Sequence record: NC_070992.1
Origin: Escherichia phage Paul
Length of the DNA stretch: 64,000 nt
Direction: 5' to 3' (one strand)
A program made the translations under genes and the position numbers. This document shows, piece after piece, positions 35,774-36,214 of this stretch; the first letter of the stretch is position 1, and each line of letters starts with the position of its first letter. The notes under the pieces are model-generated. The model searched no databases, had not been told where the DNA came from, and worked only from the letters and a program-made list of their open reading frames with translations.

Positions 35774-36214
35774 TTACAAACAGATATAGACAGGTATGTC
35801 CATCTGATTTAGATATTTAAACATTATAGGTCTTACCTGAGATTGGTAATCTAGTCCTCCATTGCTACAACCCAGTGGTGTTATGGCTAGAGAGGTGATT
35901 CCCTTATCTTTATAGGTAAGTAATAGCTTTTGTAAGCCTTGCTCTATCCACTCTACCTCAGAACCGTTTCTCCAATGCTTCTTAGTTGGAAAACACAGTC
36001 CTAGTCTCCCATCATTCAACCTCTGTAGGAGAAGTTGTCCGATCTGGAATCCAGAGTCGCAAGCAACCTTATACCTTTCAAAAGCTTCAGGGTATCTTCT
36101 TTTATACTCCTTAGCCACCCCTGCACCCATTACACCTACTAGGTTTACTGTGCAAGTTACTGTTTGGACGTCCACCGTGAATACATTGGCTTTTCCTTCA
36201 AAAACAATAGCCAT
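35774..36214 (-). CDS. macrodomain protein, TARG1/DarG-like (146 aa)
   Basis: [25 protein letters not shown] and C-terminal IPVYICL align with the MGAGIA, IGCGLD and ITVYTL segments of TARG1-type macrodomains. Confidence 0.6.

Follow-up and report, generated by a model that had tools for sequence, protein, structure and literature searches.

The macrodomain of DarG is sufficient on its own to act as an antitoxin against DarT (PMC5179494). DarTG2 protects E. coli against several phages (PMC11825919), and enteropathogenic E. coli (EPEC) E2348/69 natively carries a DarTG2-containing island that is active against phages (PMC12255303). On the phage side, T4-like and other phages encode orphan NADAR (DarG1-like) proteins, described as AdfN (PMC11825919, Nat Commun 2025), and PhiKZ gp104, termed AdfM (anti-DarT factor macro), strips DarT2-made ADP-ribose from DNA and is needed by both PhiKZ and PhiPA3 to resist DarTG2 (PMC13309987, Cell Rep 2026). 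For chimalliviruses, the use of an orphan DarG2-like macrodomain against DarTG2 was published in 2026, and the Kuravirus protein described here is a predicted new member of this known kind. We analysed a stretch of 64,000 nucleotides from Escherichia phage Paul (NC_070992.1), referred to below as the window. It belongs to a Kuravirus (Gordonclarkvirinae; phiEco32/SU10-like E. coli podovirus) and is ~94–95% identical to many deposited genomes. We found that one of its genes, here called the macro gene, encodes a stand-alone DarG2-type macrodomain, predicted to be catalytically competent, that would probably serve as an ADP-ribosyl-DNA hydrolase against DarTG2, the Kuravirus counterpart of AdfM.

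The macro gene is under purifying selection

35774..36214, minus strand: stand-alone DarG2-like macrodomain gene, 146 amino acids, orthologue of phiEco32 gene 37 and SU10 gp033

The first-pass annotation of this DNA had placed a 146-residue protein at this interval with no strand given, and the list of open reading frames (ORFs) showed an exact, ATG-initiated ORF of that length on the minus strand. When the ORF was compared with the SU10 and Bas91 copies, the ratio of non-synonymous to synonymous substitution (dN/dS) was 0.027; between Kuravirus copies 27% of synonymous sites differed and <1% of non-synonymous sites. Searched exhaustively, a library of 1.84 billion representative proteins returned 6560 homologues of the macro protein at E<=1e-3. 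Because of this dN/dS value and these homologues, the ORF is a real gene under strong purifying selection and no chance ORF. GenBank has contained the gene, generically annotated, since phiEco32; Kuravirus records name it 'Appr-1-p processing enzyme family protein' or 'phosphatase', and the label of PHROG 335 is likewise 'phosphatase'. The predicted protein is basic, with an isoelectric point (pI) of 8.8.

The macro protein is assigned to the DarG2 clade

Residues 22–125 of the macro protein passed Pfam Macro (PF01661) with 36.7 bits, against a gathering score of 22. An AlphaFold2 model built on 48 homologues had a predicted local distance difference test (pLDDT) score of 95.8 and a predicted template-modelling score (pTM) of 0.89. 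A Foldseek comparison with the PDB revealed that the best match was T. aquaticus DarG with ADP-ribose (5m3e), with a template-modelling (TM) score of 0.92 and a root-mean-square deviation of 1.5 Å. The next matches were 5m3i, 5m31 and 7omu, with TARG1 behind them at TM 0.82 and 19% identity, and there were 183 macrodomain-type matches at E<=1e-3. The model confidently predicts a three-layer alpha/beta/alpha macrodomain fold with an ADP-ribose cleft, and the profile and structure searches against macrodomain families that had been proposed as a check on the macrodomain call both bore it out.

The DarG affinity was also evident from searches with the protein alone. A single-sequence search matched M. 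tuberculosis DarG (5m3i) at 1.7e-26, the T. africanus DarT-DarG fusion (7omu) at 3.5e-25 and T. aquaticus DarG (5m31/5m3e) at 1.4e-24, with TARG1 at E 0.23. Profile searches reached the solved DarG macrodomains at 1e-53 to 1e-55; TARG1 was reached only by profile, at 2e-16 compared with 2e-55 for DarG. Hence the earlier label 'TARG1/DarG-like' held for its DarG part (E 1e-24 to 1e-26) and was not supported for its TARG1 part. The PADLOC DarG model matched at 6.9e-44 over its macrodomain part only (profile positions 6–142 of 329). The NCBIfam DarG model NF048014 gave 140.1 bits over positions 6–144 of 338, below its 250-bit equivalog cut-off, and PhiKZ AdfM scored equally on the same model, with 137.8 bits.

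The identity implied by the deposited annotation, a MacroD/YmdB or Poa1p-type enzyme of Appr-1-p processing, was not supported, as the YmdB-type ADP-ribose-binding model NF001666 gave the macro protein 13.3 bits against a cut-off of 246, and Poa1p was rank 17 among the Foldseek matches, at 18% identity. We also rejected the top relatives of ~300 residues as curated DarG proteins, since they score below the NCBIfam cut-off and, within the model, align to its macrodomain part alone; for this reason the clade assignment was based on DarT adjacency. The macro protein is assigned to the DarG2 clade and not to TARG1, to which it is 19–20% identical.

Catalytic and ligand-contact residues are retained

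Residue numbering was calibrated on the residues named for T. aquaticus DarG (TaqDarG) by Jankevicius et al. 2016 (PMC5179494) and mapped by alignment. The three diagnostic macrodomain segments that the first-pass annotation had described were all present and nearly invariant among the 48 homologues: V23-N24-x-V26-G27-V28-M29-G30-x-G32, F75-P76-T77-K78-K79-H80-W81 and G115-C-S-N118-G119-G120. The individual residues that were nearly invariant were N24, V26, G27, M29, G30, G32, A34, K78, G115 and G119. Two codons mark the predicted catalytic pair:

35981..35983, minus strand: codon of K78, the predicted catalytic lysine in the FPTKKHW motif, equivalent to TaqDarG K80, TARG1 K84 and PhiKZ AdfM K78

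36143..36145, minus strand: codon of N24, equivalent by alignment to TaqDarG N22 and PhiKZ AdfM N23

The K80A substitution inactivates TaqDarG, and N22 was the second most important residue in DarG mutagenesis (PMC5179494). By alignment the expected catalytic lysine was located as K78, at the TaqDarG K80 position. TaqDarG T79, H82 and W83 correspond to T77, H80 and W81, completing the FPTKKHW motif. Furthermore, eight of the 11 ADP-ribose contacts of TaqDarG were identical in the macro protein, and the K80, H82 and W83 positions were conserved. Two differences fell at mutagenesis-sensitive TaqDarG positions (K29 to A31 and G119 to S117), where the active AdfM also differs, with Ala at both.

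The catalytic aspartate that had been expected alongside the lysine was not recovered. TARG1 D125 aligns with the near-invariant Gly119 of the macro protein, and Gly is also found there in the three DarG sequences compared. D122 of the macro protein is neither equivalent to the TARG1 Asp nor conserved, since it aligns with a Gln in TARG1 and a Pro in T. aquaticus DarG. Taken with the family evidence, the residues predict an active ADP-ribosyl hydrolase of the DarG clade, and we are much more confident of this prediction than of an action against DarT2.

The macro protein is an orphan of DarT-linked relatives

The macro protein stops at residue 146, where the DarT-binding half of DarG would start; full-length DarG has ~330–360 residues. 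DarT was not found in the window by tblastn with four DarT sequences (best E 0.79), and no operonic DarT partner (PF14487/DUF4433) adjoined the macro gene, its neighbours being spanin and sigma-factor genes. No ADP-ribosyltransferase (ART) was present in the annotation of the complete macro-positive Kuravirus Bas91. Pfam detected no ART domain in the neighbours of the macro gene or in ten large unannotated ORFs of the window, the small ORFs not having been scanned exhaustively. Since the C-terminal half that binds DarT is missing and the window yielded no DarT, we assign the protein, from its sequence, as an orphan antitoxin-like enzyme. Its predicted action would be to erase the mark only, with no sequestration of the toxin, because the DarT-binding domain is absent.

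The best match among the 1.84 billion representatives was a protein of 314 residues (P0121, 51% identity) whose gene adjoins a PF14487 DarT gene. DarT (PF14487) was adjacent in all four of the nearest cellular relatives examined (P0121, P0048, P0080 and P0098), and a Klebsiella ColE1-type plasmid carried a DUF4433/macro pair whose macro member was 45% identical. Stand-alone relatives also occurred on phage-like or jumbo-phage-sized contigs. A tblastn search gave homologues in 269 phage records. Most of these were jumbo phages infecting Pseudomonas, Erwinia, Serratia and Salmonella, and PHIKZ104 was among the matches.

Some relatives showed other arrangements. In metagenomic phage-like contigs (L009–L011), a stand-alone macrodomain 56% identical to the macro protein (P0023) has an ART-PolyVal (PF18760) gene ~2 kb away in the opposite orientation, a possible phage-borne writer/eraser arrangement. 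A 365-residue protein of the DarG-like clade (P0159) has its macrodomain fused to a GreA/GreB-like C-terminal domain. On a 286-kb contig (L012, 4211–6561) a macro gene of this clade lies directly 3′ of a DNA methyltransferase gene with faint NADAR-DarT1 matches.

Comparison with AdfM, DarG2, AdfN and TARG1

PhiKZ AdfM was 41% identical to the macro protein over 148 columns (pairwise E 7e-36). Like the macro protein, it is phage-encoded, stand-alone, DarG2-like, of ~150 residues and without a DarT-binding domain. The two share the catalytic pair at near-identical numbering, N23/K78 as named for AdfM (PMC13309987) and N24/K78 here, and in each the TaqDarG K29 position is taken by Ala and the G119 position by a small residue. 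In contrast, the AdfM pI is acidic at 5.05, while the macro protein is basic, as is the DarG macrodomain; a 9-residue insertion before the phosphate loop of AdfM is absent here; and the carrier, a 77-kb podovirus, forms no phage nucleus, so that no PicA-dependent nuclear import would be expected for the Kuravirus protein. The homologue search of the AdfM study started from PhiKZ gp104 and reported homologues within chimalliviruses (PMC13309987); we found no mention of Kuraviruses in that paper. The macro protein is 47–49% identical to DarT-linked bacterial proteins compared with 40% to AdfM, and this closer relationship suggests, but does not prove, that the Kuravirus gene was acquired separately from the chimallivirus lineage.

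With DarG2 of the DarTG2 systems (T. aquaticus, M. tuberculosis and EPEC; 5m3e, 5m3i and 7omu) the protein shares the macrodomain fold (TM 0.89–0.92, 35–41% identity), the FPTKKHW catalytic motif with its K and W, and the ADP-ribose contact residues. It differs from DarG2 in having no C-terminal DarT-binding domain and no adjacent DarT, in scoring below the NCBIfam DarG cut-off (140 against 250 bits), and in being encoded by a lytic phage. AdfN follows the same strategy, in which the phage keeps only the enzymatic half of the antitoxin and erases the DNA mark, but it has the NADAR fold, targets guanine and DarT1, and shows no cross-activity on DarTG2 (PMC11825919). Human terminal ADP-ribose glycohydrolase (TARG1/OARD1; 4j5r/4j5s), which also cleaves thymidine-linked ADP-ribose (PMC8501950), has the same macrodomain subclass and catalytic lysine position; it differs by its 19–20% identity, by D125 being replaced by Gly and by an Ala where the macro protein has Trp81.

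The macro gene forms a presence/absence cassette

The gene lies between Rz/Rz1-like spanin genes and the phage sigma-factor gene, within the leftward middle-class (replication) cluster of DNA polymerase, nucleotide metabolism and sigma-factor genes that was defined experimentally in phiEco32 (PMC8948821). It was present in 39 of 97 related records, some of which are GenBank/RefSeq duplicates. In the other records both flanks were matched at ~95% identity and lay exactly 463 bp closer together, and the accessory distribution resembled that of a counter-defence gene. The features of the cassette and its flanks are:

35752..36214, minus strand: presence/absence cassette of 463 bp, exact junction against phage 172-1 (L003), which has the empty site

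36210..36214, minus strand: upstream copy of an ATGGC direct repeat, at the macro start codon and overlapping the o-spanin stop (TAATGGC)

35747..35751, minus strand: downstream copy of the ATGGC direct repeat, at the sigma-factor start

35107..35754, minus strand: phage sigma factor (phiEco32 gp36 orthologue), directly downstream of the macro gene; from a weak Pfam Sigma70_r2 match, the SU10 and Bas91 annotation and PMC8948821

36214..36387, minus strand: o-spanin (Rz1-like lipoprotein); from a lipobox-like signal and annotations, with the start set by homology to SU10 gp034 (174 bp)

The cassette consists of the macro ORF and a 22-nt spacer; on this spacer lie the ribosome-binding site of the sigma-factor gene and an additional ATG for it. 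At the o-spanin end, the o-spanin stop overlaps the macro start codon. In the empty site of phage 172-1, the sigma-factor ATG replaces the macro ATG on the o-spanin stop. The sigma-factor gene of phages without the cassette is translationally coupled to the o-spanin gene.

Across Gordonclarkvirinae, the gap that separates the o-spanin gene from the sigma-factor gene is an accessory slot of variable content. In ECBP2 (L018, 870–1094) and Bas86 (L019) it held a 74-residue ORF with no Pfam or PADLOC match, in EK010 (L020, 2145–2483) a DUF4326 protein annotated 'NrdA-like', and in many Kuraviruses it was empty. DUF4326 is predicted to act on ADP-ribose-derived phosphates, and fusions of it to SLOG, Macro or NADAR domains are frequent; a relationship to NADAR was rejected, as the literature places it in a rhodanese-phosphatase-like clade (PMC9503650). 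Among BASEL phages, Bas90 and Bas91 carry the macro gene and Bas92, Bas94, Bas86 and Bas88 do not; phage NJ01, like 172-1, is also macro-negative.

A copy 79–80% identical was found in the early-gene array of an unrelated Chaseviridae myophage (coliphages). Synonymous sites between this copy and the macro gene were saturated and dN/dS was not computable, so the exchange with Chaseviridae is old. The GC content of the cassette (0.41, against 0.40–0.42 in the flanks) gave no compositional sign of recent transfer. Capture from the E. coli host was also considered and rejected: at the DNA level, neither the macro gene nor the Klebsiella plasmid darT-macro pair had a match in 5,426 complete E. coli genomes. 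Any capture of the macro gene is old or was from elsewhere.

A promoter-like match lies at the downstream end of the macro ORF:

35773..35802, minus strand: sigma70-like promoter match TGGACA-18-TGTAAT at the 3′ end of the macro ORF, where it overlaps the stop codon; 10 of 12 positions, consensus match only

A sigma70 promoter is predicted inside phiEco32 gene 37 (PMC8948821) and one with 18-nt spacing for SU10 CDS32 (PMC4281155). The match may be a promoter for the downstream sigma-factor gene, in which case the macro cassette may supply a host RNA polymerase promoter for the phage sigma factor. A generic scan for sigma70 promoters and terminators found fewer promoter-like sites than in shuffled sequence and was not informative.

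Predicted action against DarTG2 and competing explanations

In hosts with the DarTG2 toxin-antitoxin defence, infection would free DarT2, which would use NAD+ to ADP-ribosylate thymidines in single-stranded phage DNA and so block replication. The phage enzyme would be produced alongside the middle-class replication genes and would bind ADP-ribose in its cleft through N10, T22, N24, V33, T77, G115, N118 and G119; K78 would cleave the ribose-thymine bond, leaving unmodified DNA on which replication could proceed. Thymidine-linked ADP-ribose on DNA is the most likely substrate because DarTG2 is native to E. coli and the DarG macrodomain alone neutralises DarT. The proposal of the first-pass annotation that a phage-encoded DarG-type eraser could reverse a DarT-type defence thus gained computational support from the DarG profiles, the fold match to DarG with ADP-ribose, the similarity to AdfM and the DarT-linked relatives.

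If the prediction is correct, Kuraviruses, which are common therapeutic-candidate coliphages, would neutralise a defence native to pathogenic E. coli by means of an orphan antitoxin enzyme, the AdfM strategy would extend from nucleus-forming jumbo phages to small podoviruses, and the long-standing annotation as 'Appr-1-p processing enzyme' or 'phosphatase' would be corrected. The natural presence/absence polymorphism of the gene makes the prediction unusually easy to test: phages otherwise ~95% identical, BASEL members among them, already form an isogenic-like panel for such a test and offer phage therapy a host-range marker.

Several points weigh against an action on DarTG2. A literature search gave no data on the macro protein or on any Kuravirus/phiEco32 with macrodomain function or DarTG. 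The substrate range of a macrodomain is unreadable from sequence: TARG1, a protein de-ADP-ribosylase, cleaves thymidine-linked ADP-ribose (PMC8501950), and the reverse promiscuity is possible. In the comparative-genomics survey of Iyer et al., soluble ADP-ribose derivatives are argued to be the substrates of many phage Macro domains (PMC9503650), and EK010 has in the same slot a DUF4326 protein with predicted processing of ADP-ribose phosphates, with a SLOG-family gene nearby. The 'DarG2 clade' label rests on DarT linkage and not on a curated threshold, the ~300-residue relatives being below the cut-off as well. In addition, 58 of the 97 related records are without the gene, and at the DNA level there was no trace of capture from E. 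coli.

The main competing explanation, raised by the first-pass annotation as processing of ADP-ribose-derived signals, is that the enzyme acts on soluble ADP-ribose derivatives (Thoeris-type cyclic or conjugated ADP-ribose, O-acetyl-ADP-ribose of SIR2 effectors, or ADP-ribose-1''-phosphate) within a small neighbourhood of ADP-ribose-processing genes. We consider it unlikely. It draws on the deposited annotations and PHROG 335, which name a phosphatase or Appr-1-p processing enzyme, on the argument of Iyer et al. that diffusible derivatives are the usual targets of phage Macro domains (PMC9503650), on the DUF4326 gene in the EK010 slot and on a SLOG-like gene two genes downstream:

34718..35110, minus strand: SLOG-family (YspA/YAcAr-like) gene, 130 amino acids; Pfam PF10686 at E 1.1e-4, below the gathering score

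SLOG domains are tied to the sensing or processing of nucleotides and ADP-ribose derivatives. However, this gene showed no co-variation with the macro gene and its Pfam match is sub-threshold; the macro protein falls in a DarT-linked clade, with Poa1p ranked far below DarG among its fold matches and with 13 bits on NF001666 against 246; its catalytic lysine is of the DarG/TARG1 type; and its homologue AdfM acts on DNA. As a separate observation, the SLOG-like gene is annotated 'GTP-binding domain' in relatives, is kept in macro-negative Kuraviruses and is absent at this position in the Suseptimaviruses examined.

A doubtful, wider proposal is that the slot is a hot-swappable counter-defence site against NAD+/ADP-ribose-based immunity, with the macrodomain as a broader eraser of DNA adducts and of RNA, protein or soluble ADP-ribose signals. 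Under this proposal the cassette might also rewire expression of the sigma factor through the sigma70-type promoter and the broken translational coupling to the o-spanin gene.

Reversal of protein or RNA ADP-ribosylation by host ART defences or toxins, on acidic residues as for TARG1 or on mRNA marks of the CmdTAC type, appears quite unlikely. The fold and catalytic lysine are common to TARG1 (TM 0.82), TARG1 and DarG overlap in activity on thymidine-linked ADP-ribose (PMC8501950), and RNA-targeting ADP-ribosylating defences occur in E. coli (PMC11618068); yet the identity to TARG1 is only 19–20%, the second catalytic residue D125 is replaced by Gly, and the gene next to all cellular relatives examined encodes DarT, a DNA ADP-ribosyltransferase.

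It is very unlikely that the macro protein is the eraser for a phage-encoded ART, the two acting as a writer/eraser or toxin-antitoxin system internal to the phage and regulating the takeover of the host. In its favour, phage Macro genes are in some cases paired with an ART or a sirtuin (PMC9503650), the 56%-identical homologue lies near an ART-PolyVal gene, and Streptomyces phage matches fall on features annotated 'ADP-ribosyltransferase', but the searches of the window, the ten large ORFs, the neighbouring genes and the Bas91 annotation found no such partner and the cassette is gained or lost alone. It is just as improbable that the protein is a non-catalytic ADP-ribose binder (reader or sponge), or that the cassette is kept mainly for its sigma70-type promoter, since, although reader-only macrodomains exist and the promoter match is located where the literature places one, at the 3′ end of the ORF, the catalytic and ligand-contact residues are retained and near-invariant across homologues, the dN/dS over the whole ORF indicates selection on the protein itself, and the sigma factor is expressed without the cassette promoter in macro-negative phages.

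Neighbouring genes and signals

Other features of the surrounding region are:

36359..36733, minus strand: Rz-like i-spanin gene, overlapping the o-spanin gene; ORF and annotations

36728..36745, minus strand: terminator-like hairpin followed by a T-run, between a 248-residue gene and the spanin genes; pattern match only

37573..37581, minus strand: perfect match to the gp36-type middle/late promoter motif TAATGTATA, located upstream of the 248-residue gene that heads the gene string; consensus from PMC8948821

The count of the gp36 motif in the whole window was not above chance, nor was it enriched with one mismatch, and the assignment at 37573..37581 rests on position and literature. Both strands of the intergenic region that precedes the 248-residue gene (37563–37662) carried clustered exact and one-mismatch TAATGTATA motifs, which suggests divergent or repeated promoter elements.

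The overlapping Rz/Rz1-type spanin pair (36214–36733, minus strand) lies in the middle (replication) cluster; the holin and endolysin genes are distant from it, in the late cluster, as placed by the Bas91 annotation. In Bas86 (L019, 1236–2128) the Rz-like spanin is a two-piece joined coding sequence split by an HNH endonuclease gene, which looks like the insertion of a mobile intron or homing element. Finally, the length of the 'dNMP kinase' locus varies among close relatives: the gene at 34194–34727 (minus strand) encodes 177 residues with DUF3310 as its sole Pfam match, and its counterparts have 531 bp in Bas91 and 894 bp in SU10 (L001, 4180–5073).

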